Below, one piece after another: positions 1,705 to 35,239 of a DNA stretch of 64,000 bases (the first letter of the stretch is position 1; every line of letters starts with the position of its first letter). The translations under genes were made by a program, and so were the position numbers. Under the pieces are notes generated by a model. That model searched no databases. It was not told the origin of the DNA and was given only the letters and a program-made list of their open reading frames with translations. The stretch spans positions 1 to 64,000 of the IMG/VR virus record IMGVR_UViG_2617271008_000003; one strand, given 5' to 3'. The stretch comes from a virus.

Positions 1705-1929
1705 CTATCCGGTAAGTTCATCGTATTCCTGCTGCTGCGCCTGTTTTGCAATCTCAAAACATGCAGCGCAACAGGTCTTCTTGACTTCAAAGCGGCGAGC
1801 CCATAAATAGCCGGTGAAGCATTCACGCTCTTTAACATCGTCTTTGAGTGTTTGGCATTCTGCGCAGAGATCAAGGATGCGGACTTCCATCTTTCGGCTT
1901 CGCCACGCATCCAGTTGCTTGTTGTTCAT
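1705..1929 (-). CDS. Hypothetical Cys-rich small protein
   Basis: 74 aa ORF with CAEC..CCAAC motifs. Same strand and operon as the DGR. Confidence 0.35.
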   Translation of the reverse strand: MNNKQLDAWRSRKMEVRILDLCAECQTLKDDVKERECFTGYLWARRFEVKKTCCAACFEIAKQAQQQEYDELTG

Positions 1930-2345
1930 GGCATCACTTCCCCATCCCTTTCGTTAGGAAGACTTGGAACAAAGGGCTTGACGTTTTCCCATGAACTGCC
2001 TTTTTGCCCCGGTTCATTACTGTTGGTGCATGCGTTCCGATGGTCAGTTGCATGAGGGCAGCGCTTGTTGCCACATTTGGCGCAAAGGATCATGCGGGCG
2101 TTCATGAAGTCCTGCGGCATGCAGCACTCACACGTACAGCCGATTTTTCCTGATCCCGCGTAGATCCCCGTCCGCATATTCGGGTCGCCGAGGTGTTCGC
2201 GCTCAGCCTCGACATATCCAGCATTGCGCCAAAGTCGCTCGATCATGACGACAAGCCCGTGTCGATCGGCCGGCGTCAGTTCGGTGTTGCAGTCGTTCAG
2301 GCGAGCGATGAGATCTCGCTCATGAGCTGTAGTATGACTCATCAT
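1926..2345 (-). CDS. Hypothetical Cys-rich protein
   Basis: 139 aa ORF with a CTCECC..CAKCGNKRCPH metal-binding-like cluster. Immediately downstream of the RT on the minus strand. Confidence 0.4.
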   Translation of the reverse strand: MMSHTTAHERDLIARLNDCNTELTPADRHGLVVMIERLWRNAGYVEAEREHLGDPNMRTGIYAGSGKIGCTCECCMPQDFMNARMILCAKCGNKRCPHATDHRNACTNSNEPGQKGSSWENVKPFVPSLPNERDGEVMP

Positions 2346-2352
2346 ATGTTTC

Positions 2353-3642
2353 TCAAATGTTTGTCTGACCTCGGTAAGTCTTAGTGAGATCGAAATTTAC
2401 AGATCGCCCGCGCGAAAGAGCGAGATTGGCGAGGCGTGCGCGATTTTGATGGCTGGCGGTGGCTTGGCGCAGCAATCCAAAATATGAATTACTCACAGCG
2501 AGAAAGTTGTCGAGTGATGTGGCCGCTGCTCGCCGGAGCGCTTCGTTACGCGTGCGCTTCCGTGTTTCTCGGCGCCAGGGTTTGATCACCTGGCCGACGA
2601 AATCGATGCCGCGGTCAATCGGTTGAAGAATGGTCTTGCGCGAGTTGATCTGCACTCCGAGGCGCGACGGCAGAAACGCAGTCACATTGGCGAGGATCTC
2701 GTTCAACCGCGCCGGCGACTCATGCAGGAACACGAAATCATCGACGTAGCGGATGTAGTGGCGCGCGCCGAGCACATGTTTGGCATGCTGGTCGAGCACG
2801 TCAAGATAGACGTTCGCGAAGAACTGGCTCGATAGGTTGCCGATCGGTAAGCCGAGGTGGTCAGCCTGCCGAAGTAGTCGTTTATGGGGCGGCACTAGCT
2901 TCAGCATCCATGGATCGCCATGGAATTCGAAGTCGCCCCGTGGATCGTGCATCAGCACGCGCGCGGTCAGATCGCGCCAGAACGGCTCGGAGATCTTCGT
3001 GAGCAACAGATCGAGCAAGATTGGCTTGTCGATACTGACGAAGAAGTTCGCGAGGTCGCACTTCAAGTAGAACGCCGGCCGCGACCAGTTCTGCGTGATC
3101 GAGCGAACCTTTGATTCGAGGCGGCGGGCGGCATAGAGGGTGCCGCGCCCCTTGATACATGCGCAGGAATCGGCGATGAATGCGCGCTCGAAGTGTGGCC
3201 CTATTCGGTTGTACAGCAGGTGGTGCACGATGCGGTCGCGAAACGCAGCAGCCCATACCTCGCGCGGTTTCGGTCGCGTAATTACGAAGCACTTCGATCG
3301 GCCGGGGGCATAGGTGCCGCTGACCAGCTCGTCGTACAGGCGGCGCAAGTTGCGTTCGAGTCGGATCTCGAACGACAGCGCCGCATTGGAATTTCTCTTT
3401 GTTCGCCGGCAGTCCAGATATGCCTCGACCAGCTCGGCGAACGAAATCGACCCTCGATCTGCGGACGGCTCGGGCTCGGAACTCGTTGTCCTGTCGGTCG
3501 TCGTCCTGGTAACCGTTGTTGAAGTTCTGATACCACGCCCAGCCGGATGTATCGTGCTATCTACGTCGCCTGCCCGATTATTCGGGCAGGAAACTGCGCT
3601 GGACCTATCCGCCAACTGGCGGCCGGTATCCTCATTGCGCAT
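2353..3642 (-). CDS. Diversity-generating retroelement reverse transcriptase
   Basis: RT motifs LPIGNLSSQFFANVYL (the DGR-specific ...SQ variant) and YVDDFVF (YxDD box). N-terminal region aligns to Brt-like DGR RTs (LVEAYLDCRRTKR..YAPGRSKCFVITRPKPREV..FRDRIVHH). True start uncertain: the maximal ORF runs to 3795 through the template repeat, and there is no ATG, GTG or TTG in frame near the conserved N-terminus. Confidence 0.85.
   Translation of the reverse strand: MRNEDTGRQLADRSSAVSCPNNRAGDVDSTIHPAGRGIRTSTTVTRTTTDRTTSSEPEPSADRGSISFAELVEAYLDCRRTKRNSNAALSFEIRLERNLRRLYDELVSGTYAPGRSKCFVITRPKPREVWAAAFRDRIVHHLLYNRIGPHFERAFIADSCACIKGRGTLYAARRLESKVRSITQNWSRPAFYLKCDLANFFVSIDKPILLDLLLTKISEPFWRDLTARVLMHDPRGDFEFHGDPWMLKLVPPHKRLLRQADHLGLPIGNLSSQFFANVYLDVLDQHAKHVLGARHYIRYVDDFVFLHESPARLNEILANVTAFLPSRLGVQINSRKTILQPIDRGIDFVGQVIKPWRRETRKRTRNEALRRAAATSLDNFLAVSNSYFGLLRQATASHQNRARLANLALSRGRSVNFDLTKTYRGQTNI
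3459..3547 (-). repeat. DGR template repeat (TR)
   Basis: ~89 bp copy of the VR sequences. On the plus strand it carries T at every position where the two VR copies vary, which is A on the coding minus strand. It codes AWYQNFNNGYQDDDRQDN, rich in AAC codons. Confidence 0.85.
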
Positions 3643-3688
3643 GGCGGTGGCCTCGTGAGCCAGCGGCACGACCAGATTGATATTTCGC

Positions 3689-4066
3689 TCAGTCATGGCG
3701 GCCTTGACCTTCATGAAGCGGGCGACGTTCTGTGGACTTCTTCCATCCATTGGCCTGTTTCCCGATACTCGTCGTCTGCTCGATCGCGCCAGCATAGGCC
3801 GCGCGCGCGATAAGACGCTTGTCCATGCCGAGGCGAAGCAACAGTTCTATCACTTGGAGGCGCTCAAGCAATTCGGCGAGATGCGGCGACTTGTCGGCCG
3901 CGACGTTCGCGCGGAACACCAGCACCATGATATCGATGCATTCGATCGTGATCTTCTCGCCGATGGTGCGCTTGAAGTCGCGAGGCATGTTCTTGACCAC
4001 GTCGGTGACAGTATCGAGCAGCGCATATGCCGCTCGATATATCGGCAGTTGGGTATGGATGGCCAC
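3689..4066 (-). CDS. avd: DGR accessory variability determinant (Avd-like four-helix-bundle protein)
   Basis: 125 aa basic helical protein lying between the target genes and the TR. Resembles the four-helix-bundle (TIGR02436/bAvd) family. Confidence 0.65.
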   Translation of the reverse strand: MAIHTQLPIYRAAYALLDTVTDVVKNMPRDFKRTIGEKITIECIDIMVLVFRANVAADKSPHLAELLERLQVIELLLRLGMDKRLIARAAYAGAIEQTTSIGKQANGWKKSTERRPLHEGQGRHD

Positions 4067-4080
4067 GGTGGATTAAATAA

Positions 4081-4545
4081 TCAAATTACTGAAGGGAGAA
4101 ACCTGCGGACGGCTCGGGCTCGGAACTCGTCGCCCTGCCGGCCGCCGTCCTGGTAACCGTAGTCGAAGTTCTGACACCACGCCCAGCCGGAATTTGACTC
4201 ATATACTTCGGCCGACCAGTACCATGCCGATTCGAACTCGTCGCGTAGGTTCGTGAACAGGAGCGATTGCTCGCGACGTGTAGGCAACTCACCACCTCGC
4301 TCGGCCGCCCATTTCTTGGCCGATTCCCAGTTGACCTCGTCGGCACCGCCCGGCAGCAGGATGACGTAGTGCGCGACCAATCCATCGTTGTTGAGGATTG
4401 CGCCGGCAACGCGTTCGCCAGCAGCGAGTGGAATTGTGACTGCGGGAATGCGCAGTTCGGTGGCAGTGGGCTGCTTCTTGAATTGTTCGATGAGCGCGCT
4501 GATACGAGCGTGTTCGGCCTCGATGGAGGCAAGCGTGATGGTCAT
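4081..4545 (-). CDS. DGR target protein B, DUF1566 / C-type-lectin (FGE-like) fold, VR at C-terminus
   Basis: 154 aa. C-terminal GGELPTRREQ..YWSAEV..SGWAWCQNFDYGYQDGGRQGDEFRARAVRRF matches the DUF1566 end (WRLPT..YWSST..AW..VRCVR). The variable repeat covers the last ~30 codons. Confidence 0.8.
   Translation of the reverse strand: MTITLASIEAEHARISALIEQFKKQPTATELRIPAVTIPLAAGERVAGAILNNDGLVAHYVILLPGGADEVNWESAKKWAAERGGELPTRREQSLLFTNLRDEFESAWYWSAEVYESNSGWAWCQNFDYGYQDGGRQGDEFRARAVRRFLPSVI
4103..4192 (-). repeat. DGR variable repeat VR-B
   Basis: Differs from the TR at 8 positions, all at TR adenines on the coding strand (A to G, T or C). Confidence 0.85.
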
Positions 4546-4575
4546 TGCGATGCTCCGTTGTGAATGGATGAAGGG

Positions 4576-4938
4576 TTAAATCGACAATCTGCGGACGGCT
4601 CGGGCTCGGAACTCGTTGTCCTGTCGGTCGTCGTCCTGGTAACCGCCGTCGAAGTACTGACACCACGCCCAGCCGGAATAGCCAGGATCGGTATCCGGTG
4701 TGTTCGACCAGTACGCTTCAGCCTGAAACTGGTCGCGGTTCTGCTCGTAGGCGATCACGAGCTCGGCGCGGGTCGGAAGGTCGCCGCCGATGCTCTTTGC
4801 CCAGTCGAGCTGTGCCTGCCACGAAGCATCGTCGTTGTCGCCGGGCAGGAGAATCGTGTGCGTCACGTCGCCAGCGGCGTTGACGAAGCCGCAGAGGTAG
4901 ATCTCACCTTCGGCGAGCGGGGGAATCTGGATTTGCAT
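4576..4938 (-). CDS. DGR target protein A, DUF1566 / C-type-lectin fold, VR at C-terminus
   Basis: 120 aa. GGDLPTRAELVIAY..YWSNTPDTDPGYSGWAWCQYFDGGYQDDDRQDNEFRARAVRRLSI. SD AGGAGA before the ATG. Confidence 0.8.
   Translation of the reverse strand: MQIQIPPLAEGEIYLCGFVNAAGDVTHTILLPGDNDDASWQAQLDWAKSIGGDLPTRAELVIAYEQNRDQFQAEAYWSNTPDTDPGYSGWAWCQYFDGGYQDDDRQDNEFRARAVRRLSI
4589..4678 (-). repeat. DGR variable repeat VR-A
   Basis: Differs from the TR at 5 positions, all at TR adenines. The 3' 45 nt on the coding strand (IMH-like, GC-rich) are identical to the TR. Confidence 0.85.
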
Positions 4939-5023
4939 GTTTCATCTCCTAGTAAAATGCTGCGTCAATGAAGTCACTGGTATGAATTCAATTTATGGAA
5001 CGTTTCAGCTTAGATTTGCTTAC

Positions 5024-5233
5024 TCACTTGCCGTCCTCCTCGGCCCGCGCGAAGTCCGCTATCTTTCGGGCAAGTTCTTCGTCGTCCATGCCGAGCGCGC
5101 GCGCGATTGCCAAGCGCGCTTGACTTGCCTGTGAGCGCGATATCGTGGGCAACCGCATGCCATGTGCTTCGCTGTAGTCCGTGACGTGCGCCCGGATGTA
5201 GTCGCAGGCTTCGGTGTATGGGTATCTGCTCAC
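5024..5233 (-). CDS. Hypothetical small phage protein
   Basis: GTG start overlaps the upstream stop (GTGA) inside the repeated GGAGGACGGCAAGTGA coupling motif. Ends ..EEDGK. Confidence 0.45.
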   Translation of the reverse strand: MSRYPYTEACDYIRAHVTDYSEAHGMRLPTISRSQASQARLAIARALGMDDEELARKIADFARAEEDGK

Positions 5234-5475
5234 TTGCCGTCCTCCTTCCTCTTGCGCTTGTCCAGCCACTTTTGAGCCTCGTCGCGCATGGTCGAGTGAG
5301 CTTCATACGAGATCCGGAACATGAGGTGCATGTCGCGGGTTTGTTCCTCGGGCTGGATGCATTCCTCGCGGAGCTTGCCGTTTTCGTCGCGCACGATGAC
5401 CCAGAGAGGGCGGTTTGACCAGCCAGGGCCACTGGCGAATTCGGCGTATGCTGTCACTACTTGTTCTTTTCTCAC
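5230..5475 (-). CDS. Hypothetical small phage protein
   Basis: Same GGAGGACGGCAAGTGA coupling motif at both start and end. Ends ..KEDGK. Confidence 0.45.
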   Translation of the reverse strand: MRKEQVVTAYAEFASGPGWSNRPLWVIVRDENGKLREECIQPEEQTRDMHLMFRISYEAHSTMRDEAQKWLDKRKRKEDGK

Positions 5476-5876
5476 TTGCCGTCCTCCGTGGTGATGCGCG
5501 CCAGCGGTTCCCACAAGCTCATGAGGTGAGCCAGTCGGGGCATCAAGTATTCGATGACTGCCGGCTCGTCAGCGCGGCAAACGTCGATGATCGAGCAGGA
5601 ATGGAAGCCCTTTCGCTGGACCATGAAGAACATCTTCAGCTTGCCATTTCGGTAATACGGGTCACCAGTGAAAGTGGGGCGATTGTCATCATCCATTTCG
5701 TCCCAGTCCCAGCGAAACAGCATGTTGTAGTCCATGTCTGCATCGCCCATTTCGGCAAAGAAGTCAGCCCATGACTTGAATTCCCAGATTGTCTTGTGCT
5801 GTTCCTGGCTATGCGTGTAGCCGCCCTCGGTGCAGTAGTACGGGTGCTTGATTTCCCACAGGTGCTTGTCGTTCAA
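5472..5876 (-). CDS. Hypothetical phage protein
   Basis: TTG start after SD GGAGGTGGAGC, overlapping the upstream stop (TTGA). The long 5472-6419 ORF upstream of this start is a shadow of the 5873-6217 gene. Confidence 0.5.
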   Translation of the reverse strand: MNDKHLWEIKHPYYCTEGGYTHSQEQHKTIWEFKSWADFFAEMGDADMDYNMLFRWDWDEMDDDNRPTFTGDPYYRNGKLKMFFMVQRKGFHSCSIIDVCRADEPAVIEYLMPRLAHLMSLWEPLARITTEDGK

Positions 5877-6217
5877 GCTCCACCTCCAGCTTCGGTGATG
5901 CGCGCCCCGATCTCGGCGGCAGCGCGGGTGATGGCGCGGCGAGTGGCGGCGTTCGCGTCCCCGTGCGGCTCCTCGATCGTCGCCCAGCCGTTCATCTCGT
6001 AGAACTGAGCGCTCGAAGAATGGCTGCTCGCATGCACCATCAGACGCAGATGCACCGCCAGCCGCAGCGCGTCGCCGTCGTCGTTGAGGGGGTTCCACTC
6101 GCGCCATACCCCATCGGCGCGCTCGATGTGCCAATGGTTCGGCGTGCCGCGCTGATAATCCGTCCATTCCGCGCCGGCAGCCTTCGCCGCTAGTCGCAAT
6201 AGTTCTTGATCGTTCAA
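5873..6217 (-). CDS. Conserved phage protein (three paralogs in this window)
   Basis: 114 aa MNDQELLRLAAKAAGAEWTDYQRGTPNHWHIERADGVWREWNPLNDDGDALRLAV... The first 55 aa are identical to 30916-31278, and it is related to 11766-12140. TTG start with SD GGAGGTGGATC. Confidence 0.6.
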   Translation of the reverse strand: MNDQELLRLAAKAAGAEWTDYQRGTPNHWHIERADGVWREWNPLNDDGDALRLAVHLRLMVHASSHSSSAQFYEMNGWATIEEPHGDANAATRRAITRAAAEIGARITEAGGGA

Positions 6218-6498
6218 GATCCACCTCCATCGCGAGCGGCGTCCAGAGCGGATTTGCCGAGTTCGGTGTTGAAGTAGCAGACGACATCGCCCGGGCCGTT
6301 GAACTCATGGCACACGCAGATGCCTCCGCAAGGCGCCAGCGTCTCGCGCTTGTCGAGCAAGCCGCATTCGACGGCGAAGCGCTCGATCTCGGATCCGTCA
6401 ACATCACCCGGGTAGCCATCGTTGCGGTGGGCGGCGAAGACGAGGCCGGCGAATCGAGCGAGCGCGGCGACCTGAGCGTCCGTGTAGGGATGGCTCAC
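6214..6498 (-). CDS. Hypothetical phage protein
   Basis: GTG start overlaps the DUF551 stop (GTGA) after SD GGGAGAG. Confidence 0.45.
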   Translation of the reverse strand: MSHPYTDAQVAALARFAGLVFAAHRNDGYPGDVDGSEIERFAVECGLLDKRETLAPCGGICVCHEFNGPGDVVCYFNTELGKSALDAARDGGGS

Positions 6499-7067
6499 GA
6501 TTTCTCTCCCTTGCGTGCGGCGTCGATAGCCTCGTCGCACGGTAATGGTTTCCAATGCTTCGGTTCGTAGATCAGAGTGCTGACGCCGCTTCCATTCGGA
6601 TGGTTATAGACAGCGTCCTCCACATAAAAGTAGTGATTTACGCGCTGGATTCTCACTGCGGCTTTGGGCCAATGCCAGTGGTTGGTGCCTGGCACTTTGA
6701 GATATCCTCCTTTGACCAAATATTTCCCACTCGCTGGCGCCGTCTCGATCGGTTGCCATTCGCTTTCCGAGATAGCCGGCGCAGCCTTGACGAGCGCAGC
6801 GTAGAGTTCATCCGGCGTACCGTATATGCAGTTCTCGTTTGTCAGCACTGCGCGCATGGCATCGTTCAGCGGCGGCATGGTGATAGTCGGCGCAGGCGAG
6901 GCGGCGAGCAGTTCTCGCGCGCGTTCCTTCGCCAGTTGAAACACGGATTCCAAGGCGTCGGCATTGAATGCCGTGTCGTTGCGCAGTTGCATGATTAGGA
7001 ACGCAGGGTCGCAGCGCTCGATGAATTCGAGGTGCTCTCGGCGTTCGTCGCTCAGCTTGTCACTCAT
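6495..7067 (-). CDS. DUF551-domain phage protein
   Basis: WQPIETAP motif. SD AAGGGAGA before the ATG (MSDKLSDERREHLE). Paralog of 30104-30919. Confidence 0.6.
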   Translation of the reverse strand: MSDKLSDERREHLEFIERCDPAFLIMQLRNDTAFNADALESVFQLAKERARELLAASPAPTITMPPLNDAMRAVLTNENCIYGTPDELYAALVKAAPAISESEWQPIETAPASGKYLVKGGYLKVPGTNHWHWPKAAVRIQRVNHYFYVEDAVYNHPNGSGVSTLIYEPKHWKPLPCDEAIDAARKGEKS

Positions 7068-7090
7068 CGGGTGTCTCCCTTGGTCGGTGC

Positions 7091-7294
7091 TCACGTCAAC
7101 CTCAGATATTCGTTCGTGACGGAATCAAGCTCGTCCTGAGATTCACAGCGATCCGAGCCGCACTCGGCGATGGCATGATTCGCTGCGTCCGTAGCAGCGT
7201 CTCCGGGCCATCCGCGAAGCCGAGCCTCAAGATAGACTTGCCCCCACATGTCAGGTGCGCCGAGTGCCAGCGAGTCAACGATTGGCTTCTTCAC
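7091..7294 (-). CDS. Hypothetical small protein
   Basis: GTG start after SD GGAGG, overlapping the upstream stop (GTGA). Confidence 0.4.
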   Translation of the reverse strand: MKKPIVDSLALGAPDMWGQVYLEARLRGWPGDAATDAANHAIAECGSDRCESQDELDSVTNEYLRLT

Positions 7295-9483
7295 GCTTCG
7301 CCTCCCTTCCCACCCTGCGCGCCCGACACCAGATCGCGCAGGTTCTGCTTTTCCTGCTCGGCGGTTTCGAGCGCATCGCCTTGGTCGAAGCGACCGCCCA
7401 CGAGTGACCATGCAGACGCCAACACCTGCGCCTGCGCCATGATCTCCTCGACGCGCTTGGGCGGGAGCACCGCCTCTCCCGCATCAGCAGGGACGGCGCC
7501 TCGATAGAGCGGCACGACGTGATCGGGCCTCATGTCCGCGATATCCTCGCGATCGAGGTAGACGCTCGCCGGTTTCAGGCTGACGCAATCGAGCGTCATG
7601 TATGCATCCGGCTCGCGCGCCTCGGCCGGTGCGGCGGCCTGCTCGTCTTCGACGATCTTCAACGCTTCGAGCACGTCGAGGAAGAAAACCAGAGGGCCTG
7701 CCTCGTGTTCCTTGCCGTCCCAGTTGTAGCGCTTGAAGGCTGGCATCGAGGCCGGTGCGGCGGCCTGCGCGCGATAAAGCTCGACTTCCATGCGGAGCAC
7801 TTCTGCAAGGCGCTTGACCAGTTCGATCTTGTTGAGCGGGTCATCGGGATGTACGGGATCTTCGCCGCGCAGGGTCACGCAGACATCTGCAAGCGTTTCG
7901 CTCAGTCGGCGGATCACGTAGGCATCCTCCGACTCTTCGGCAGCGTTCGCTTGAGGTGCGGCGGCCTGCGATTCCCGCGCGGCGACCTCGACGGCGCGAG
8001 CGAACTTGGACAACGCAGGATTGATCGGACAGCCCATGATTCGGGCACTGAGGCGCGCGAGGAGGCTGAAATCAAGCTTCGCCGCCCGCTCGTCGGCCGT
8101 GGCCGGGTTCTTTCGCGTGCCATCGTCGATGTCGCACGAGTCCTCCGGACAGCAGACGCCATCGCGGTTCCCTGCGAGGCACACATCGCCGCCGTTCTGG
8201 CAATGCTGCTTCGGCGCTTTCCAGGGCTCGGCCGTGGCCGGCGATACTGCTGCGCGCTCGTTGGCCGCGTCCGCTTCGGAATGAACAACCTGGCTCAAGC
8301 GTTGTTTCAACTCATCAACCATGCGCTGATAGCGGAGCACAGAAGATTCGAGATGCTGGATGATCTTGTCCGCCGGCGGCGATACTGCTGCGTGCATCAC
8401 GATGTCTCTAAGTTCAACAGCCCGTTCAGCGTCTATGAACTTCGCGATTTCGGCTGCGTCGATAGCGGTTCGAAGCGCATTCGCGTCACAAGCATTCAAC
8501 ATTCGGGTGGCCGGCGATACTGCTGCGCGCGCCTCGCGTAATGCTTCCCGGATGGCGTTCTTCACGTTGACGGGATATGCCATGCCGCCGGGACAGTGGG
8601 CATTGGCGATCCAATCGATGCGATCTTCGTCCGTGGCCTCCCCATCAGCTGCGACAGCCTGAGCGGCTATTTCCGGCACCGTCCAATCGCGAGTCGGGCA
8701 GTCTAAGGCTTGCTGGATAGTGCTGGTTGCATCTTGCCCTTCGCCCAATGGCACGGGGCCGAAATCGTGGATCGATGCCACTCTGACCGGCGCGTCGACA
8801 GCCTGAGCGGCCGATTGGACCTCCCCAATGCCGGCGATCTTCATGCTGTCGAAAATCTCGATCGTGCGCGTGTGGGCTTCGGACCAGCAGTCGACAGCCG
8901 ACATTGGCTCGTGAGACTCCGCTGCGCCGTGCGAAGCATCTTCCAATGCGCGCTTGATCGAGCCACGCACGAACCCGTACAGGTCGCGCCGGTCGATCGT
9001 GATCAGGTTCGCCGCGTTATCCGTCTGCGGCTCCGCGACCGGGGCGGCGGGAGCGGCGTCGAGCATGGCGCTCCAAATCTTCTTGAAGCCGGACCAGCCA
9101 TGTTCGTCGTAGGCGAGGTGGCCCGAATCGGCCATCTCGCGGGTGGCCTCGATCGGCACCAGCTTCCACCCCTTCGGTGCGGGCACTCCTGCTCGCGGGG
9201 AGGTGAGAAGTGCGCGGAGATCGGCGACGAGAAGCGGCGTGAAATTGATGGAATGAATTTTCTCTTGGTCGGCGCCTCGAAGAATGGAATATGCATCCAT
9301 GAAAGCTGCCACACGCTTCCGTGCGGCTTCGCGCTGCTCGTCTCGAATCGGGCTGTGTTGCAAAGCAAAAAGTTCGCGGAGGCGCACGAGCGTTTCGCGG
9401 GGGACGCGTGCGATGCCGTTTTCGCTGCTGTCGATCAGGTGGGCGATATCGCGATCCAGATCGGCGGTGGTGTTGTTCGTCAT
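7291..9483 (-). CDS. Large multi-module phage protein with repeated AAAPA / RAAVSPAT linkers
   Basis: 730 aa starting MTNNTTA, like its paralog at 27825. Contains a 50 aa block identical to 27825-29702, and a Cys cluster CCPEDSCD. Confidence 0.55.
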   Translation of the reverse strand: MTNNTTADLDRDIAHLIDSSENGIARVPRETLVRLRELFALQHSPIRDEQREAARKRVAAFMDAYSILRGADQEKIHSINFTPLLVADLRALLTSPRAGVPAPKGWKLVPIEATREMADSGHLAYDEHGWSGFKKIWSAMLDAAPAAPVAEPQTDNAANLITIDRRDLYGFVRGSIKRALEDASHGAAESHEPMSAVDCWSEAHTRTIEIFDSMKIAGIGEVQSAAQAVDAPVRVASIHDFGPVPLGEGQDATSTIQQALDCPTRDWTVPEIAAQAVAADGEATDEDRIDWIANAHCPGGMAYPVNVKNAIREALREARAAVSPATRMLNACDANALRTAIDAAEIAKFIDAERAVELRDIVMHAAVSPPADKIIQHLESSVLRYQRMVDELKQRLSQVVHSEADAANERAAVSPATAEPWKAPKQHCQNGGDVCLAGNRDGVCCPEDSCDIDDGTRKNPATADERAAKLDFSLLARLSARIMGCPINPALSKFARAVEVAARESQAAAPQANAAEESEDAYVIRRLSETLADVCVTLRGEDPVHPDDPLNKIELVKRLAEVLRMEVELYRAQAAAPASMPAFKRYNWDGKEHEAGPLVFFLDVLEALKIVEDEQAAAPAEAREPDAYMTLDCVSLKPASVYLDREDIADMRPDHVVPLYRGAVPADAGEAVLPPKRVEEIMAQAQVLASAWSLVGGRFDQGDALETAEQEKQNLRDLVSGAQGGKGGEA

Positions 9484-9688
9484 GGTGTCCTCAGATCGTT
9501 GGACTCAGTTGCATCGAAGGGCGCGCGGCTCGCATGTGGCATGCGTTTCAATATGAAGCCGCGCGGCTTGCAGTTCGCGTCAGGGTTGTGACGGGGCCCA
9601 GCCGTCACCCGCGCGCCCGTCGATGGAACCGAGGAAAAAGGGGCGTCGTGTGGACCGCCCAAGGCTCGCTACGGGGGCAGCGATTCGG

Positions 9689-10201
9689 TTAAGCAATCTC
9701 CAAGCGATCGCGCTTGATGAGCTTGGCACCAGGTACTTCCTTACCGGCCTTGATCGCTTTGGCGATTTCTGTCTTGCTCGGCTTGGGCTCGGGAGGCTTC
9801 GGTGTTTTCATGAACTCGGCCGGAATCTGCTTTTCATCGAAGATTTCAACAGCAGAGTCACGCTCAATGTGCAGCTTCGCGGAGAACGTACCGTCATGCG
9901 CCTTGATCTCGGTGATACCAGCGCGCTTCATGCTGTCCGCGAGGTAAGCCCGCAGCTTTACTTGCTTGGCGACGATTGCAGCCTTGCGCGCGGCCACTTG
10001 GGCCTCGTGCGCTTCGATGGCGGTCAGCGTGGAATCTTGGTTGAGGATGTAGGCGCAAACGCTCACACCCTTGTCCTTCGTCATCGCCAGCGCTTCGACT
10101 AGTTCAGCCGACAGTTCGCCGGTTTCCTGATCAATCGCGCTCGGATCGTTAAGAAGCTGCTCGACTTGCGAGGACAACGTGTAGAGGCTCAGGGTTGTCA
10201 T
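9689..10201 (-). CDS. Siphovirus Gp157-family protein
   Basis: MTTLSLYTLSSQVEQLLNDPSAIDQETGEL... coiled-coil protein. Start chosen at the internal ATG with SD GAGGG, 10 nt after the upstream stop. Confidence 0.55.
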   Translation of the reverse strand: MTTLSLYTLSSQVEQLLNDPSAIDQETGELSAELVEALAMTKDKGVSVCAYILNQDSTLTAIEAHEAQVAARKAAIVAKQVKLRAYLADSMKRAGITEIKAHDGTFSAKLHIERDSAVEIFDEKQIPAEFMKTPKPPEPKPSKTEIAKAIKAGKEVPGAKLIKRDRLEIA

Positions 10202-10211
10202 GGCTTGGCCC

Positions 10212-10850
10212 TCAGAACGGGATATCGTCGTCCATCTCGTCGAATCCGCCAGTAGGCGCGTTGCCATGGGGCTGACGAGATGTGGTTTGCGGTGCTCCAT
10301 TGCGCTTCTTCAGCGGTCGATGGCGCAGTGACTGAACCACCTTTGCAAGCTGGAGCGGCTGCACCTTGCGGTCGAGAATTTCTGCTGCCATCAGCTCGGT
10401 TGTCGGATCGAAGAATGCGGCCGGCACAACCTTGGTGCCAATCGAGCCGTCGTTTTTCTCGTAGTCTTCGGTCTCGAAGAGGATGCCGATCTTTTTCGAC
10501 ATCAACTCTTTGAACACTTCGGCTTCGACCTCGACCATGCTGGACGAATTGCGGTCCCACTTTTTCACGACGGCGCGAACGGGCTCGATGTTGCGAACGC
10601 GCATGCAGGCCATCATGGCTTGCAGTTGCTTGAAGCCGAACAACGATTCGCCTTGCGCGTTGAGCGTCCAGAGCGAAAAGTTCGCGCTGAGTCGATCATC
10701 CGTCTCGAAAGCGAAGTCGATGCCGCGCGTTCCTTTGGCGCTGGTCACGTCTTCAGCGCGAGAGAAGGTACCGATGAACTTCCCGATTTCGTTAATGCGA
10801 CCACTGCGCTCATCGGCTTGTCGGGCAGCGTTGATGTCAAGTGCGTACAT
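10212..10850 (-). CDS. DUF669-like phage ssDNA-binding protein with SSB-type acidic C-terminal tail (DDDIPF)
   Basis: The C-terminus GGFDEMDDDIPF is the canonical SSB protein-interaction tail. Adjacent to the Sak4-like ATPase, as in known phage Sak4/SSB pairs. Confidence 0.55.
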   Translation of the reverse strand: MYALDINAARQADERSGRINEIGKFIGTFSRAEDVTSAKGTRGIDFAFETDDRLSANFSLWTLNAQGESLFGFKQLQAMMACMRVRNIEPVRAVVKKWDRNSSSMVEVEAEVFKELMSKKIGILFETEDYEKNDGSIGTKVVPAAFFDPTTELMAAEILDRKVQPLQLAKVVQSLRHRPLKKRNGAPQTTSRQPHGNAPTGGFDEMDDDIPF

Positions 10851-10863
10851 TGCGATTCCTTAT

Positions 10864-11529
10864 TCAGGCGGGTGCGTGGATATCGTAGAAAGCTGCGATC
10901 GCGCTATCGATTTCAGCAAGATCGTTCGGCACGCGATCAGCATCGAACAATCCCATCGGGCTTTTAACGGTGTCCCTTCCGTTGTTGCGTGTCGTAAAGG
11001 TGTACTCACCATCACTGACATCGGTGCGAAGCACGATCGTTACCAACCCTTCCATGACGATCTTTTCGTCGAGAAGCTTGCCGATCGTCTTGATCTTGGT
11101 CTTGCCGAAGTCGTCGGTGGCCGTGTGACTGAGGATGTACACTCGCTTGTAATCGGCCAGTGATCCAGCAGCCATGAGAATGTCCCAGGCATGACGAGCG
11201 ATTTCGTTGTACTTGGCAAAGGCTGAGTTGCCGACTTCAACGTCTGTCACCCGGCGCATAAACTCATTCGCTAGAATGTATTGAAAATCATCGATGATGA
11301 TGATTTCCTTCTTGGTCTTCTCCATCGCCTTGACGATATGGTCGCTGTTGTCCGTCACGTAGACCGATCCATCTTGGCCTTTGGCAATAGGCTTCCAGCC
11401 AGTCGACTTAAAAGGCAGCGGCTTCTTGACTGCCTGAATCAGCAGAGTCTTGGCGGGGTCGAGATTGCGCATGCCGGCACTCTTGCCGGTCCCGCTTTCG
11501 CCGATCACCATCGTTGCAATGCTCATCAT
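10864..11529 (-). CDS. Sak4-like RecA-fold ATPase (AAA_24 family) recombination protein
   Basis: Walker A GESGTGKS near the N-terminus. 221 aa. Sits in the recombination module. Confidence 0.7.
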   Translation of the reverse strand: MMSIATMVIGESGTGKSAGMRNLDPAKTLLIQAVKKPLPFKSTGWKPIAKGQDGSVYVTDNSDHIVKAMEKTKKEIIIIDDFQYILANEFMRRVTDVEVGNSAFAKYNEIARHAWDILMAAGSLADYKRVYILSHTATDDFGKTKIKTIGKLLDEKIVMEGLVTIVLRTDVSDGEYTFTTRNNGRDTVKSPMGLFDADRVPNDLAEIDSAIAAFYDIHAPA

Positions 11530-11604
11530 GTTCTCCTTGTAAGTCGTGCCATTCGAGGAATTCTTGAAGTTCTTGTTGCTGTCGGTAGTCAGGTCCGTCT
11601 CTCA

Positions 11605-11865
11605 TCACGCACCCCAAACGCGAGGCACAGACATTCCGTCTTGATTGAGGCGGGCGATCACATACGTGGCACCGGCAGCAATGAGCACAGCCACCAGATA
11701 GCCCGCGATAGGGCTACGCTTGTGCAGGCGTTCGAGCAGATCGCCGAGGTAGTCGAAGGGCGTGTTCATGCGGCACCCATGTTCTTGCCGATCTCGGCGG
11801 CAGCGCGAGTGATTGCGCGGCGCAGTGCGGCGCACTGGTCGCCGCGAGTTTCGTGGTGCCAGCAA
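11605..11865 (-). CDS. Hypothetical small membrane protein
   Basis: Hydrophobic C-terminal segment IAGYLVAVLIAAGATYVIA. Confidence 0.3.
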   Translation of the reverse strand: MLAPRNSRRPVRRTAPRNHSRCRRDRQEHGCRMNTPFDYLGDLLERLHKRSPIAGYLVAVLIAAGATYVIARLNQDGMSVPRVWGA

Positions 11866-12140
11866 ATGAACTCAGCCACATCGGGGGCGAGTTTCTGCTT
11901 GTCGTATGTCTCGCCCACGCTTGCGTAGCTGCCGTAAGCTCCGACGATGAGATTCAGCTTCACCGCCAGCCGCAGCGCGTCGCCATCGTCCGCTAGCGGA
12001 TTCCAGAGGGAATTAGCATCCCAATGTTCCCCCTTTACTTTGTCCGCCGAAAGGCGATACATGCCTTTCCAGAATTCATTCCACCGCAGGTCAAGCCCCG
12101 CCGCCTTCGCCGCCAGTTCCAACAGTTCTCGATCGTTCAT
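11766..12140 (-). CDS. Conserved phage protein, paralog of 5873-6217
   Basis: MNDRELLELAAKAAG...NPLADDGDALRLAVKL... Start at the internal ATG overlapping the upstream stop (ATGA). Confidence 0.5.
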   Translation of the reverse strand: MNDRELLELAAKAAGLDLRWNEFWKGMYRLSADKVKGEHWDANSLWNPLADDGDALRLAVKLNLIVGAYGSYASVGETYDKQKLAPDVAEFICWHHETRGDQCAALRRAITRAAAEIGKNMGAA

Positions 12141-12364
12141 TTCGCTAATCCAGAGAGAATTTCGTCTTTGGCGAACATCGGATTCGCCGCAGTAATCCAG
12201 AAGCCGGCCGCGTTCTTGCACATGCCTGCTGCTTCCATTTCCTCCACCGAACGGCACCGGCGATCAATGCCGAAACCGCCGATGCGGTGTTTGTCGAAAG
12301 CTGCGGTCGAGTTGAAGAACTGCTTGCAGCCTTGACACTGGTTGCGATCGCCGCTGAGGTTCAT
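12137..12364 (-). CDS. Hypothetical zinc-ribbon protein
   Basis: 75 aa with CQGC..C motifs. Confidence 0.4.
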   Translation of the reverse strand: MNLSGDRNQCQGCKQFFNSTAAFDKHRIGGFGIDRRCRSVEEMEAAGMCKNAAGFWITAANPMFAKDEILSGLAK

Positions 12365-12597
12365 CGTGCAACTCCAGTAATCAGTTCAACAGCAGGCGCG
12401 ACGCCCGAAGCGATGAGATACAGCGCAAAGAGGATCGCGAAATCGAGCCAGTCGGGGCGGTTCATGGTCAGCACCAGCAGATATCGTCGTAGAAGATCGT
12501 CGTGAAGCACTCGTGAATCAGATGCCCGTCCGAGCACCGGTAATCCACGCTGTGCAACACGCCGTGCTTGAGGTCGATGTAGGTGTGGGTTCTCATC

Positions 12598-13032
12598 TCA
12601 GGCTCCTGCCTTCGCGAGCGCGTCTTCGCCGAGGCGCGTCAACTGGTCGAACAGTTCGTCGGCATCATCAAACACGCGCCGAGCTTCTTCGGCCGTCGCC
12701 ATGTGCGTGAACCGGACGTCGTGCAGATGGTGGTAATCGCAACCAACCTTTACCGACGTGACGCGACCCTCGTACATCGGGTATTCGAGAAGCGACGGGC
12801 CACCGTGCAAGATCAGCATGTTCGCCGCGTCCTGCCACATTTGCGGGCCCTCGAACTTCGCAAAGTGCGGATGCTGGGGATAGATGTACGCGTAGACGCA
12901 CCAGCGGTTCTGGCCTTCGCTGTCGTACTCGCGGCTGAGGCCACTGCTGTGCCGGCTGATTTCGACCATGAAGTCTTTCCCGCGCCGGCGCCACACATCC
13001 TTGTGATCCCACTGCTGCTTGCTCTCGCTCAT
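12598..13032 (-). CDS. Hypothetical phage protein
   Basis: 144 aa ORF in the operon. No recognisable domain. Confidence 0.4.
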   Translation of the reverse strand: MSESKQQWDHKDVWRRRGKDFMVEISRHSSGLSREYDSEGQNRWCVYAYIYPQHPHFAKFEGPQMWQDAANMLILHGGPSLLEYPMYEGRVTSVKVGCDYHHLHDVRFTHMATAEEARRVFDDADELFDQLTRLGEDALAKAGA

Positions 13033-13056
13033 AAATCCCCCGGTGGTGTCAGTTGG

Positions 13057-13332
13057 TCAGAAGCCGCGATAGACGCGGGCCGGATGAAAGAAGGACGCCG
13101 CGAGTTCGCGCAGTTGCCAGAGAGCCCCATCGGCGTGTCCGTCGGACCAGTGTTCAACTTCGTACACTCCAAGCACCTCGTCTCGGCTATCACGCGCCAC
13201 CCACTTCCAGCAGGGGCGATTCGTCATTACGGACGTTCCCTTTACGAACTGCGATCGAGCTACTGCTTTCCCGTTTCGGCAGATTCCTTTGGGGCCTTGC
13301 AGCCGCTGAGCTTCCATGTCTTTCACCTGCAT
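13057..13332 (-). CDS. Hypothetical phage protein
   Basis: 91 aa ORF. Confidence 0.35.
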   Translation of the reverse strand: MQVKDMEAQRLQGPKGICRNGKAVARSQFVKGTSVMTNRPCWKWVARDSRDEVLGVYEVEHWSDGHADGALWQLRELAASFFHPARVYRGF

Positions 13333-13411
13333 TCGAAAAAGGGAGGCGCCATACAGGCCGCCACCGAAGAACGCCGCGCAATCCGAGGGCCACGCGCAGC
13401 GCTGAGAGTCG

Positions 13412-13615
13412 TTACCAGTGGGTGTCGTTGTCGTCCTGCTTGCCCTTGATGCCGCGGTGCAGCCCGGTGGCCACGAAGGCGAGCACGATCAGCACGATGA
13501 AGCCGGCGGCTTCGAGCCATTCGGTGGGGGTCACAGTTCGTCTCCCAGGCTCACTTTCGGATGGTCCGAGCAGTGGCTGTAGCCGCTGTTGCCGGCGGGG
13601 AAGCTGCGGCCACAC
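13412..13615 (-). CDS. Hypothetical small membrane protein
   Basis: 67 aa with one TM helix AAGFIVLIVLAFVATGL. Confidence 0.35.
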   Translation of the reverse strand: MWPQLPRRQQRLQPLLGPSESEPGRRTVTPTEWLEAAGFIVLIVLAFVATGLHRGIKGKQDDNDTHW

Positions 13616-13911
13616 TGCGAGCAGTAGGTGCGCATGAACTTCTTGCCGCGCGCGCAGGCATCCACGGCGTCATCGAACAGGTTGTCGATCTGCCAGAGAA
13701 AGTGGCGACGGTCCGTGTGAAACGTGCGCATCAGTTGCTCGCGATCCGACTTGTGCAGGTTGGCGAGCTTTTCGAGCACGTCATCGAGCGTGACTGCGCG
13801 GCGCTTGGCGTCGAGTTCCGCAGCCAGCGCGTCCTGGGCGTCGTGGAACTGTTGCAGCGTTCGATCGGACCAGAACTCGACGGCGCGCTCGGTGTGAGAG
13901 AGGGGGCGCAT
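13531..13911 (-). CDS. Hypothetical protein with C-terminal zinc ribbon
   Basis: Start at the internal ATG overlapping the upstream stop. CSQCGRSF..HCSDH motif. Confidence 0.4.
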   Translation of the reverse strand: MRPLSHTERAVEFWSDRTLQQFHDAQDALAAELDAKRRAVTLDDVLEKLANLHKSDREQLMRTFHTDRRHFLWQIDNLFDDAVDACARGKKFMRTYCSQCGRSFPAGNSGYSHCSDHPKVSLGDEL

Positions 13912-13912
13912 G

Positions 13913-14224
13913 TTAGGCCTCGACCTTCGGCAGTGCGGCGATTTGGTCCAGGATCTCCTCGACCTCATGCCATTGAAGATGCCCCAACACGTCGTTGGTG
14001 ATGGGAGTGGAGTAGTCGAGGTGCCACGTATCGTCTCCGAACGTGACAACACCCAATTCCCACTTTCCGTCTTCGCCGCCATAGGTGAAGTAGCCGCGAA
14101 CCACGCTGGCACCGTATCCGTTGTCGAAGCGATAGATCTTTTGCTCGCCCTTGATGCCATGCATCGTTCCGCGATCGATTTCGCGGTAAGGGACGTGCTT
14201 GCTGCTCTCGTTGGTGGTGGTCAT
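13913..14224 (-). CDS. Hypothetical phage protein (first gene of leftward operon)
   Basis: MTTTNESSKHVPYREID... Internal ATG preferred because it has an upstream GGGGG SD and the 14278 start has none. Confidence 0.4.
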   Translation of the reverse strand: MTTTNESSKHVPYREIDRGTMHGIKGEQKIYRFDNGYGASVVRGYFTYGGEDGKWELGVVTFGDDTWHLDYSTPITNDVLGHLQWHEVEEILDQIAALPKVEA

Positions 14225-15719: not shown

Positions 15720-16019
15720 ATGATGAGCGCGAGCGGAGAGCAGCGGGGGGGATTGCGGTGCAGGCCGGGGGATCTGGCGCGAGTGGTGTATTCCGCGAAC
15801 CCGCTGCTGATTGGGCGAACCGTGTTTATTGAAGGGTGGGGAGGGCATGGACGATGGAACGTCACGCTCCTCGGCGCGCCGTCGTTTGGCCTTGAGTTCG
15901 AGACGAAACGCCCTGTCGTCGGAAACAAGACTGCCTTCAGGGATTCTTCGCTCGCCCCTATTGGGGATCTCGATGGCCGGGAAGAGTCAGTCGGAGGGAT
16001 ATCGGCCGTCGCTTGTTAG
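15720..16019 (+). CDS. Hypothetical protein downstream of LexA box (possible SOS-controlled antirepressor-type gene)
   Basis: The ORF track ORF starts at a TTG at 15648. Preferred start is the ATG at 15720 after GGGAG. Function unknown. Confidence 0.35.
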   Translation: MMSASGEQRGGLRCRPGDLARVVYSANPLLIGRTVFIEGWGGHGRWNVTLLGAPSFGLEFETKRPVVGNKTAFRDSSLAPIGDLDGREESVGGISAVAC

Positions 16020-16436
16020 CGGCGTGGGATCGTCGGGCCCCTTAGCAAGAAGCCCGCTGATGTAGGCCTCTACCTTCGCGCGGCCGAGATCGTCAAGTTG
16101 GGACCATCCGTCCGGCGCTCCCATCAGATTGGATGGCCGCGGGCGAGGGGCTACTAGATCGATTACCTCTCCGCTGGTACTTTCTCTCCATGCGCGCTCG
16201 AACTCCAACGCCACCTTCTCGCCAAACGACTTGGACCGCGCCATATCGTTGATCTGCTGAGGCAATCTTTTCATACGACGAGCGACTTCCGCCTGACCAT
16301 AGATATCTACTAGGGCGGCAAGCGCTTGGCGCCGCATCTCGGTGACTTCAGCGTGTGTCAAAAGTTGATCGTCCATGTGCGAAATTAGACCATCGCACAC
16401 CATTTGGTGAAATAAACCGAATGGTGTTGAATGCAT
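15987..16436 (-). CDS. CI-like phage repressor (XRE-type HTH, no S24 peptidase domain)
   Basis: HTH GQAEVARRMKRLPQQINDMARSKSFGEKVALEFERAW. Divergent from the Cro-like gene with operator palindromes in between. Candidate start ATG lies inside the operator CACCAAATGGTG, suggesting a leaderless transcript. Confidence 0.55.
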   Translation of the reverse strand: MHSTPFGLFHQMVCDGLISHMDDQLLTHAEVTEMRRQALAALVDIYGQAEVARRMKRLPQQINDMARSKSFGEKVALEFERAWRESTSGEVIDLVAPRPRPSNLMGAPDGWSQLDDLGRAKVEAYISGLLAKGPDDPTPLTSDGRYPSD

Positions 16437-16450
16437 AAACCATACGGTGT
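16397..16450. promoter_or_regulatory. Three operator palindromes (OR candidate): CACCATTTGGTG, ACCGAATGGTG, ACCATACGGTG
   Basis: Tandem near-perfect ACC-N4/5-GGT palindromes in the 86-bp divergent intergenic region. Confidence 0.55.
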
Positions 16451-16704
16451 ACTATTCCCGTATGGACAAGCTCAAATCCTTCCTGGCTGGCTACCGACCC
16501 GACGACCGAGAGGTGTTCGCTGCTCGTTGCGGGACCACTGCTGCATTTCTCAGAAACGTCGTGTACGGGCAGCGCAAGCCCGGAGAAAAGCTATGCGTCG
16601 CGATCGAACGCGCTACCGAAGGCGCAGTGACGCGCCGCGATCTTCGCCCCGACGACTGGCAGGACATCTGGCCCGAGCTGGTCGAGCTGAAGGAGGTCGC
16701 ATGA
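16447..16704 (+). CDS. Cro-like DNA-binding protein (YdaS/Cro family HTH)
   Basis: 85 aa ...FAARCGTTAAFLRNVVYGQRKPGEKLCVAIERATEG.. typical of the YdaS-like Cro family. Divergent from the CI-like gene. Confidence 0.55.
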   Translation: MYYSRMDKLKSFLAGYRPDDREVFAARCGTTAAFLRNVVYGQRKPGEKLCVAIERATEGAVTRRDLRPDDWQDIWPELVELKEVA

Positions 16705-29702: not shown

Positions 29703-29941
29703 CTCTCGGCGAACTCATCAAATCGCGCCGCGAAGCGCAAGGCATGACGCTGGACGAGGTTGCCGATGCGGCTGGCTGCTCGAAGTCCTATCTGTGGGAA
29801 ATCGAGAATCGCGTCGGCTACAAGGTCAGCTTGATCAACGCCGTGCGTCTATCTGTTGCGCTGGGTATCCACATCAATCTCTTGGCGTCGGCAGTTCTTG
29901 AATCTGCTGCGCAGGATGGGAAGGGAGGCGATCGTGGCTAA
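29699..29941 (+). CDS. XRE-family HTH transcriptional regulator
   Basis: LIKSRREAQGMTLDEVADAAGCSKSYLWEIENR is a canonical HTH_3. Confidence 0.7.
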   Translation: MTLGELIKSRREAQGMTLDEVADAAGCSKSYLWEIENRVGYKVSLINAVRLSVALGIHINLLASAVLESAAQDGKGGDRG

Positions 29942-34936: not shown

Positions 34937-35012
34937 GCCGGTTTAGCTCATCAGGTAGAGCGACGGATTTGTAATCCGTAGGCGGTGGGTTCGAGCCCTA
35001 CAGCCGGCACCA
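34937..35012 (+). tRNA. tRNA-Thr (anticodon TGT)
   Basis: Folds as a canonical cloverleaf: 7-bp acceptor, D stem GCTC/GAGC, anticodon stem ACGGA/TCCGT with loop TTTGTAA, T loop TTCGAGC, CCA encoded. Confidence 0.85.
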
Positions 35013-35234: not shown

Positions 35235-35239
35235 TCTAT

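Follow-up and report, generated by a model that had tools for sequence, protein, structure and literature searches.

Two inverted copies of a mosaic three-gene block with ordered intragenic linkers in a lambdoid prophage of Burkholderia gladioli

Phage mosaicism is usually ascribed to illegitimate recombination and selection, and clear cases of conserved 'linker' DNA guiding homologous exchange are, to our knowledge, rare. In shufflons and in the Rci and Gin/Cin/Hin systems, a dedicated recombinase acts on short specific sites that lie within a few kilobases (kb) of each other. Ea22, a mosaic accessory protein of the lambda exo-xis region, is encoded in the leftward early operon, with recombination genes on one side and xis/int on the other. 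As formulated by Susskind and Botstein, the modular theory of phage evolution is said to invoke conserved sequences at lambdoid gene boundaries. The concept, with conserved boundary sequences targeting homologous recombination, is restated in PMC3974807. According to Iyer et al. 2017 (PMC5512222), genes for polyvalent proteins of the phage type are often neighbours of late or virion genes, and the proteins accompany the DNA by packaging or delivery; their processing by an MPTase peptidase domain has been proposed (PMC5512222). Described here are two large 'cassette proteins', g015 and g052, and the three-gene block to which each belongs; the blocks lie in inverted orientation in a stretch of 64,000 nucleotides (nt) of a B. 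gladioli prophage (positions 1 to 64,000 of IMG/VR record IMGVR_UViG_2617271008_000003), the whole of which is called the window.

Each block consists of a gene for an 'MTNNTT' cassette protein, then one for an 'MSDKLSD' protein, then one for a phrog_5086 ('MNDQELL') protein, and one copy is present in each of the two divergent early operons. An earlier note on this DNA had described three gene types as occurring twice, in matching order but on opposite strands; a listing of open reading frames (ORFs) and a codon-usage gene call agree with this, with the genes at the coordinates it had given. The ends of the blocks correspond (5873/9486, left; 27822/31278, right). Features of the two blocks, with lengths in amino acids (aa), are as follows.

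5873-6217, minus strand: g011, phrog_5086 'MNDQELL' protein of 114 aa, left copy
6053-6217: 165-nt inverted repeat, left arm; perfect run 6053-6199
6214-6498, minus strand: g012, ORF of 94 aa within the left block, no counterpart in the right block
6495-7067, minus strand: g013, 'MSDKLSD' protein of 190 aa, left copy; only junction patches in common with g054
7091-7294, minus strand: g014, ORF of 67 aa within the left block, its start overlapping the g015 stop; no counterpart in the right block
7291-9483, minus strand: g015, 'MTNNTT...QGGKGGEA' cassette protein of 730 aa, left copy; 13 cassettes
8377-8530: 154-nt perfect inverted repeat, left arm; cassette TRMLNACDANALRTAIDAAEIAKFIDAERAVELRDIVMH with an L4 linker on either side
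27825-29702, plus strand: g052, cassette protein of 625 aa, right copy; 9 cassettes
29042-29195: 154-nt perfect inverted repeat, right arm
29699-29941, plus strand: g053, HTH_3/HTH_31 regulator within the right block
30104-30919, plus strand: g054, 'MSDKLSD' protein of 271 aa, right copy
30916-31278, plus strand: g055, phrog_5086 'MNDQELL' protein of 120 aa, right copy
30916-31080: 165-nt inverted repeat, right arm; perfect run 30934-31080
11766-12140, minus strand: g020, third phrog_5086 paralogue; direct repeat of g011, inverted relative to g055

The identical block of ~150 bp reported earlier within the large ORFs was recovered by a repeat finder and by self-BLASTN as 154 of 154 nt (8377-8530 versus 29042-29195). 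Base-by-base comparison of the first 165 nt of the two MNDQELL genes, likewise described as essentially identical, gave 163 identical positions with a perfect run of 147 nt; the self-BLASTN alignment around this repeat covers 206 nt (6047-6251 versus 30882-31086, 92.7%). Both long inverted matches are sharp-edged, similarity vanishing beyond the edges in the base-by-base comparison, and around them lie about a dozen shorter collinear matches of 23-51 nt. With perfect runs of 154 and 147 nt, the identities are not confined to stretches below 50 bp, the outcome that had been named as refuting the observation, and the observation of inverted repeats therefore stands.

The two copies are only patchily alike because each gene family is mosaic, and gene-for-gene equivalence is absent: g012 and g014 occur only on the left, the helix-turn-helix (HTH) gene g053 only on the right. 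Of the earlier description as inverted paralogous modules, the order, the coordinates and the long repeats could be kept; full-length paralogy of the large proteins and the label DUF551 for the MSDKLSD proteins had to be given up. g015 and g052 are not paralogous along their length, BLASTP finding only one identical cassette of 51 aa (of 13 and 9). Similarity between g013 and g054 is not significant (BLASTP, E=0.05), their common parts being confined to some 12 initial codons, a linker 'AASPAP' and a motif WQP(I/V)ETAP. A motif of the latter type is the only resemblance to DUF551 (PF04448): in Pfam, the whole proteins gave no match at E<=0.1, g013 in domain-sized pieces reached 11.3 bits (E=0.69; gathering threshold, 22 bits), and g054 gave no match. 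The third MNDQELL paralogue noted earlier (11766-12140) is real; g011 (E=2.8e-29), g055 (E=9.3e-29) and g020 (E=2e-30) all match phrog_5086 over ~107-109 of 110 profile positions, and g020 shares with the other two only the conserved ~45-nt end and middle segments. The phrog_5086 genes are themselves mosaic, with unrelated inserts between conserved segments (the three of the window; IMG/VR loci L002, L005, L006, L008, and L010). Conserved segments are a 5' end of ~45 nt, MND.ELL.LAAKAAG; a middle of ~45 nt, WNPL.DDGDALRLAV, for which identity is still 95% in gp26 of Burkholderia phage BcepC6B; and a 3' end, RRAITRAAAEI.

g015 and g052 share the N-terminal heptapeptide MTNNTTA and the order of their linkers, both carrying L1-L8 in sequence. 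Linkers of g015 are L1, LLTSPRAG; L2, AAPAAPVAE; L3, AAQAVAADG; L4, AAVSPAT (three times); L5, ATADERAA; L6, SQAAAP (twice); L7, AAAPAEAREP; L8, PADAGEAV. Between the linkers the two sequences are unrelated. Apart from the 154-nt repeat, the DNA matches between the large ORFs are ~10 collinear inverted stretches of 23-38 nt (91-100% identity), located at the start codon or at linkers; linkers matched in both ORFs are LLTSPRA(A/G)VPA, AAPAAPVAE, AAQAVAADG, (R)AAVSPAT, PATADERAA, SQAAAP, AAAPAEAREP, and (V/I)P(A/S)DAGEAV. Their codons agree with the family majority and, often unusual, are common to both copies (GCA GCA GTA TCG for AAVS; GCT CAG GCT GTC for AQAV); of the 14-nt core of the AAVSPAT linker the window has five copies, versus 0.08 expected by chance. 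The C-termini differ: g015 ends in ...GAQGGKGGEA, the QGAQGGKGGEA type of end that overlaps the ribosome-binding site and start of the next gene, which g052 lacks; g052 has the rarer end ...ALPPEGA, found also in the family protein P0012. An AlphaFold2 model of g015 based on the family alignment (predicted local distance difference test score, pLDDT, 61.7; predicted template modelling score, pTM, 0.28) has confident, mostly helical segments, and its stretches of pLDDT <50 coincide with L1, L2, L3, L5, L6, L7, and L8. The model fits a beads-on-a-string protein without a fixed global fold.

Searching 5.8 billion proteins with g015, the search on which the taxonomic breadth rests, gave 158 matches, and all named ones are from Burkholderia (gladioli, glumae, pseudomallei, thailandensis, cenocepacia); typical matches are 85-100% identical over just 5-30% of g015. 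Family statistics rest on the 120 listed matches of the 158. Among these, the MTNNTT start is present in 57, the QGGKGGEA end in 48, and four or more linker motifs in 81, giving a family of at least 81 Burkholderia prophage proteins. The linkers are strictly ascending in 77 of the 81, with 4 out-of-order pairs among 566 adjacent linker pairs, and in the consensus of an 80-sequence alignment the linkers are conserved and the columns between them unconserved. Splitting at the linkers yielded 598 cassettes with a median length of ~51 residues, which form 309 clusters (greedy clustering; minimum identity 50%, minimum coverage of the longer member 80%). Single-linkage clustering was dropped, as unrelated cassettes were chained via leftover linker residues. 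In clusters with at least three members, 98% of the members have the same left-hand linker, and the cassettes are therefore slot-specific. Every one of the 13 g015 cassettes and all but one of the nine in g052 recur at 86-100% aa identity in other family proteins, none of which has more than four cassettes in common with g015 or g052. Since g052 and g015 cassettes co-occur in other proteins, both copies draw on one pool.

Fourteen further IMG/VR contigs with family genes were fetched by one linker pattern and a start-codon pattern. One of them, 643692013_000008 (107 kb), has two family genes converging ~10 kb apart (L003, 4099-5706, plus strand; L002, 3184-5106, minus strand); one is of a divergent subtype (MTDPNTTT..., end ...DSEGGEA), and an integrase is located beside the L002 copy. 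These two copies look like two adjacent prophages rather than a two-arm arrangement.

Prophages of B. pseudomallei, B. thailandensis, and B. cenocepacia (P0082-P0120) have proteins built in the same way, on another ordered linker set (EQPAAAPI, APSPADERAA, ASANETGAE, PEPRAEVT; end ...ARTGGA) and some shared cassettes. This pseudomallei-type group includes gp43 of phage phi1026b (NC_005284.1; L071, 5455-6969), annotated as hypothetical and positioned as the genes here, in an early-left operon heading to the integrase. With the gladioli/glumae family the group, gp43 included, shares cassettes such as EDRIDWIANxHCPGG...NAIREALREAR and HCQNGGDVCLAGNRDGVCCPEDSCDIDDG; it differs in its own linker set and its own termini. 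The whole is a large unannotated class of early-operon proteins in Burkholderia prophages, to which phi1026b gp43 belongs. Inverted paralogous prophage genes as such are ordinary; what appears new is the underlying ordered-linker architecture, of which no prior description was found in the searchable literature, a literature of incomplete coverage with most subscription journals outside it.

At the DNA level, a single codon string predominates for every linker, and departures from it are limited to single synonymous changes (14 ORFs, namely those of 12 fetched loci and the two of the window; four further loci examined afterwards). Codon choice agrees across 13-17 ORFs of different genomes. The conserved codons include the rare GCA GCA GTA, GCT CAG GCT, and CCT GCT (codon use in the surrounding cassettes: GCA, 18%; GCT, 13%; GTA, 6%; CCT, 10%), and their conservation extends to linkers and loci outside the search patterns. 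When family ORFs were compared all against all by BLASTN, 93 of 145 internal ends of high-scoring segment pairs were within 9 nt of a linker (pairs of at least 80 nt), versus 26 expected from a linker coverage of 17% of the sequence. No motif common to all linkers, such as a Chi-like site, was evident by eye beyond GC-rich Ala/Pro codons. Slot fidelity, fixed order, DNA conservation, and breakpoint enrichment form the pattern expected of in-register homologous recombination at the linkers, and we infer that such recombination swaps cassettes. The linkers, which are unique, 23-38 nt long and in frame, would act as in-register crossover sites; crossover via host RecA or the phage Sak4/SSB would then swap a cassette with reading frame and order intact. 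The Sak4, SSB, Gam-like protein, NinB, and NinG of this phage are plausible machinery for the exchange. Sak4 belongs to the single-strand annealing proteins and is stimulated by the SSB cognate to it (PMC5928155); proteins of this class recombine short and diverged sequences (PMC5499656, PMC8093625).

The likeness to the modular theory is that short conserved DNA flanks interchangeable modules and is the proposed target of homologous recombination; it applies here to the start/stop junctions of the three gene types, for example the GGKGGEA stop region and the ATGACGAACAACACCACC start. Unlike the boundaries of that theory, the joints within the large genes are intragenic, in frame, Ala/Pro-rich and of eight distinct kinds in fixed order, and what they flank are cassettes of ~50 residues, not genes. 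The family offers a compact, testable case (at least 81 proteins, ~600 cassettes, eight ordered joints, 98% slot fidelity, breakpoints at the joints). Such genes also create short perfect repeats between and within prophages, which can drive rearrangements or mislead paralogy-based analyses. Possibly, though we are more inclined to doubt than to accept it, the eight ordered linkers are an evolved device that provides in-frame, non-interchangeable homology 'overhangs' in the manner of Golden Gate assembly. Phage recombinases would then reassort the ~300 cassette types among co-resident Burkholderia prophages with frame and order kept, and two inverted copies would allow exchange inside one genome, by gene conversion and now and then by inversion. 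If true, this would realise Botstein's linker hypothesis within genes and would be a means of diversifying early host-takeover or anti-defence proteins by recombination.

Perfect identity, sharp edges, and otherwise unrelated genes argue for recent exchange between the two arms, and the 154- and 147-nt perfect runs are probably the product of recent gene conversion or cassette replacement. The 'VMH' ending of the shared cassette is found only in the two window copies, four other carriers having R there. The variable segment of the 165 nt shared by g011 and g055 is in no other phrog_5086 gene fetched; the others share with these two only the ~45-nt conserved end and middle segments. In IMG genome 2826589760, L005 (6005-8532; contig _000005) and L010 (2865-5404; contig _000006) are 97% identical over 2.5 kb, which are exactly the MTNNTT and MSDKLSD genes, with an unrelated recombination-gene region upstream. 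Judged from these sequences, the match indicates block exchange between co-resident prophages. A third family member is present in the same genome (contig _000003, L064).

g015 (730 aa) is encoded exactly once in public assemblies, in B. gladioli GCA_000756855.1, scaffold KN150850.1 (scaffold-level assembly; window position = KN150850.1 record position - 428,855). The whole window is one lambdoid prophage in which every core module occurs once: two early operons diverge from the only immunity region, and there are one integrase, a replication module, a nin-type region and late genes. The integrase, leftward early operon, repressor/Cro pair and rightward operon are all in the window, in agreement with the earlier view of the two copies as lying in two arms of one prophage. 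Megablast of both block regions against 50,697 phage records gave only matches of 41-54 nt, to BcepC6B gp26 (a phrog_5086 gene), and no close sequenced phage is in that collection. Features outside the blocks are as follows.

1-1269: tyrosine integrase at the window start; host genes immediately outside
Left arm, near the integrase: AlpA-type excisionase
1705-14224, minus strand: leftward early operon
9689-10201, minus strand: Gam-like/Sipho_Gp157 protein, recombination module
10212-10850, minus strand: SSB, recombination module
10864-11526, minus strand: Sak4-like annealing protein, recombination module
15987-16704: repressor-like g029 (minus strand) and Cro/YdaS-like g030 (plus strand), the sole immunity region, between the repeats
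26947-27822, plus strand: g051, Band_7/SPFH gene; abuts the right block (stop TAA, then CC, then the g052 ATG)

The recombination module (9689-11526, minus strand) sits immediately upstream of g015. Genes of the rightward operon are, in order, a DUF1376 replication protein, a DnaC-like loader, NinB, NinG, the Band_7 protein, the second block, a NinI-like phosphatase, and an exonuclease; farther to the right come four tRNAs, then terminase, portal, baseplate, and tail-fibre genes.

The left copy is in the canonical position, after the Sak4/SSB/Gam-like genes and pointing to the integrase. In L010, L005, L002, L006, and L008, recombination genes are followed by MTNNTT, MSDKLSD and phrog_5086 genes on a single strand, and in L002 an integrase is located at the end toward which the block genes point. 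L010 is 95% identical in DNA to window positions 9375-11737, its gene order continuing into the MTNNTT gene; the P0012 gene (L014) occupies a left arm beside the integrase, and after it comes the HTH gene that is g053 here. By comparison, 43 IMG/VR loci with the same NinB/NinG/NinI/exonuclease backbone all lack the block upstream of NinI, and only one of them (L033) has as much as a phrog_5086 gene there. DNA of the right block matches only left-arm blocks (L013, 88%; L010/L005/L067, 85-86%; L014, 95-96%; L010/L005, 96%): the first 100 codons of g054 are 94-96% identical to left-arm genes of L005 and L010, and the pair of P0012 and HTH genes beside the L014 integrase has 95% DNA identity to g053 plus the 3' end of g052. 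Beyond 31278, window similarity to NinI loci falls to 65-75%. GC content is 62% in both blocks (right, 62.5%) versus 53-56% in the right-block flanks. Because the block is in none of the 43 nin loci, its DNA matches are to left arms only and its GC content contrasts with that of its surroundings, the right copy is, on this comparison, an extra left-arm-type block inserted in the nin region; g051 may be part of the same insertion. The chimeric history that the earlier note had raised is supported by the same GC contrast, by the absence from the 43 nin loci and by matches of 85-98% only to blocks of leftward operons.

We consider it likely that the whole is explained by a single prophage with a left-type block inserted in nin, linker-guided swapping of cassettes and recent exchange between the arms, any inversion being a by-product. 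Several points weigh against this explanation. The linker-recombination pattern is purely comparative, and linkers could be identical in DNA partly because all members descend from a recent common ancestor, or because codons and residues of Ala/Pro-rich segments are strongly constrained. The perfect runs could stem from independent acquisition of the same cassette allele or from a common recent donor. The family set comes from one query, g015, in a word-indexed search and is biased to members sharing g015 linkers; splitting at linkers by regular expressions is approximate, missed linkers inflating the cluster counts. In the AlphaFold2 model, the L4 pair flanking the shared cassette forms a continuous helix, not flexible spacers, and the product of each large ORF may be one polypeptide or may be cleaved later.

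A plain segmental duplication, in which the left block was copied into the right arm and then diverged in the ordinary way with no special role for the linkers, would account for the corresponding order of gene types and block ends and for the 62% GC in both blocks, but has in our estimate a low probability. Divergence between the copies is not gradual: stretches are either 91-100% identical (linkers, one cassette) or undetectably similar, with sharp edges; right-block cassettes are 96-100% identical to those of other genomes, not of g015; and for g053 and the C-terminus of g052 the match is L014 rather than the left arm of the window. Two prophages side by side, tandem or back-to-back, with one block copy from each, have a precedent in the 107-kb contig 643692013_000008 with its converging family genes and adjoining integrase. 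Here, however, the tandem arrangement once proposed is extremely unlikely, as there is a single integrase, a single immunity region with its repressor/Cro pair, a single replication module and a single structural set (terminase, portal, tail), with no structural genes on the left side. The left arm is laid out like the complete left arms of L014 and phi1026b, and NinI lies 31 kb from the integrase end, close to the 24-30 kb from the contig start in related IMG/VR contigs of 65-68 kb. The chance that a mis-join or collapsed repeat mimics an inverted duplication is practically negligible: the record is a scaffold-level assembly (KN150850.1), but the repeats are short (~150 nt) and inside intact long ORFs with different unique cassettes on either side, coherent operons flank both blocks, and the same contig was reported for two samples.

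The earlier suggestion that the repeats could mediate inversion of the DNA between them is physically plausible, given the inverted perfect runs of 154 and 147 nt and the recombination genes; nothing shows that it occurs. Perfect inverted runs of such length are adequate substrates for RecA- or phage-mediated recombination. Their spacing is 20.5 kb (154-nt run) and 24.7 kb (147-nt run); crossover in the 154-nt run would leave both large genes in frame, and inversion would leave the immunity, replication, and recombination genes in reversed orientation with respect to int/xis and the late genes. A programmed, shufflon-like system, in which crossovers at some nine in-frame joints invert the centre and swap C-terminal cassette strings so that a lysogen population contains many protein combinations, is very improbable. 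It would be in keeping with the collinear in-frame inverted matches at the start codon, L1, L2, L3, L4, L5, L7, L8, and the 154-nt cassette, which should leave every inversion product in frame, and with the recombination proteins that the phage itself encodes. Against it, no invertase, serine or tyrosine, was found among ~50 window proteins (PHROGs/Pfam) or the precomputed Pfam calls of the arms, some small ORFs being unscanned, and the integrase is the only site-specific recombinase; most joints are just 23-38 nt long; and int/xis and the late genes would face an immunity and replication region turned round by the inversion. The two-arm layout is in none of the 14 other IMG/VR contigs carrying family members: 13 are single-copy, and the two-copy contig has converging genes in two adjacent prophages. 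Only one arrangement of this genome is on record, the exact g011, g055, and g015 proteins being found in one contig only (reported for two samples). As in shufflons and invertible tail-fibre or pilin segments, inverted repeats in coding sequence could swap C-terminal segments; the present repeats differ in that no invertase was found and that they are 20-25 kb apart and span the regulatory core of the phage. With recombination at linkers and inter-arm exchange as the explanation, the same repeats could occasionally cross over, giving in-frame chimeric genes and 18-25 kb of inverted DNA as a by-product with no programmed switch; rare spontaneous inversion in this way would be likely.

Cassettes of g052 include a DUF3850/ASCH domain (aa 319-403; 74.2 bits versus a Pfam gathering threshold of 22.9) and two zinc-ribbon-like cassettes. 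DUF3850/ASCH alone was above threshold when the whole proteins and ten separate cassettes were searched in Pfam, zinc-ribbon matches being sub-threshold. By sequence, g052 matched PDB 3iuw ('activating signal cointegrator', E 1.7e-4) with the ASCH cassette only; the same search of PDB with g015 gave no match. A C-terminal cassette matches the N-terminal part of 'Mu Gam-like / host nuclease inhibitor' PHROG families, and cassettes in relatives are, by their source names, Lar-like, VRR-NUC, HTH, and DUF551. Because of this content and the early-operon position, we suggest that the cassette proteins may be early-expressed strings of small host-takeover or anti-defence accessory domains. Polyvalent proteins are alike in being one polypeptide with many small, variable, conflict-related domains in extremely mosaic architectures (PMC5512222). 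They differ in that g015 and g052 are encoded in early operons, that no peptidase domain was detected in either (Pfam/PHROGs), and that ordered DNA-conserved linkers are absent from PMC5512222 (the word 'linker' occurs 0 times). The likeness to Ea22 is one of position only, and no sequence or Pfam match was obtained. As far as we know, Ea22 is not built from ordered-linker cassettes.

The left arm also contains a complete diversity-generating retroelement (2353-4938, minus strand), with the following parts.

2353-3642/3696, minus strand: reverse transcriptase
3457-3547: template repeat
3689-4066, minus strand: bAvd
4081-4545 and 4576-4938, minus strand: two Lcl_C-like target genes
4101-4191 (90%) and 4587-4677 (95%): variable repeats

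All mismatches between template and variable repeats in the repeat core (9 and 5) are at adenines of the template, the hallmark of these elements; the region is 81% identical to IMG/VR 643692013_000006 (L068). A cluster of four tRNA genes, Thr(TGT), Ser(TGA), Ser(GCT), and Met(CAT), is located between the exonuclease and packaging genes (34937-35953, plus strand). A transposase gene lies in the nin region on the opposite strand (21809-22789, minus strand; phrog_3598, E 6e-142), and an IS3-type orfA/orfB pair (39659-40746, plus strand) between the terminase (37848-39392) and portal (40988-42022) genes; because of these two insertion sequence transposases the prophage may be defective. Imperfect palindromes are found within a structural gene (48652-48687; 36 nt, 83%) and within the DUF1376 replication-protein gene at 17668-18543 (18084-18128; 46 nt, 83%), and the latter could, by analogy with lambda O, belong to a replication origin.

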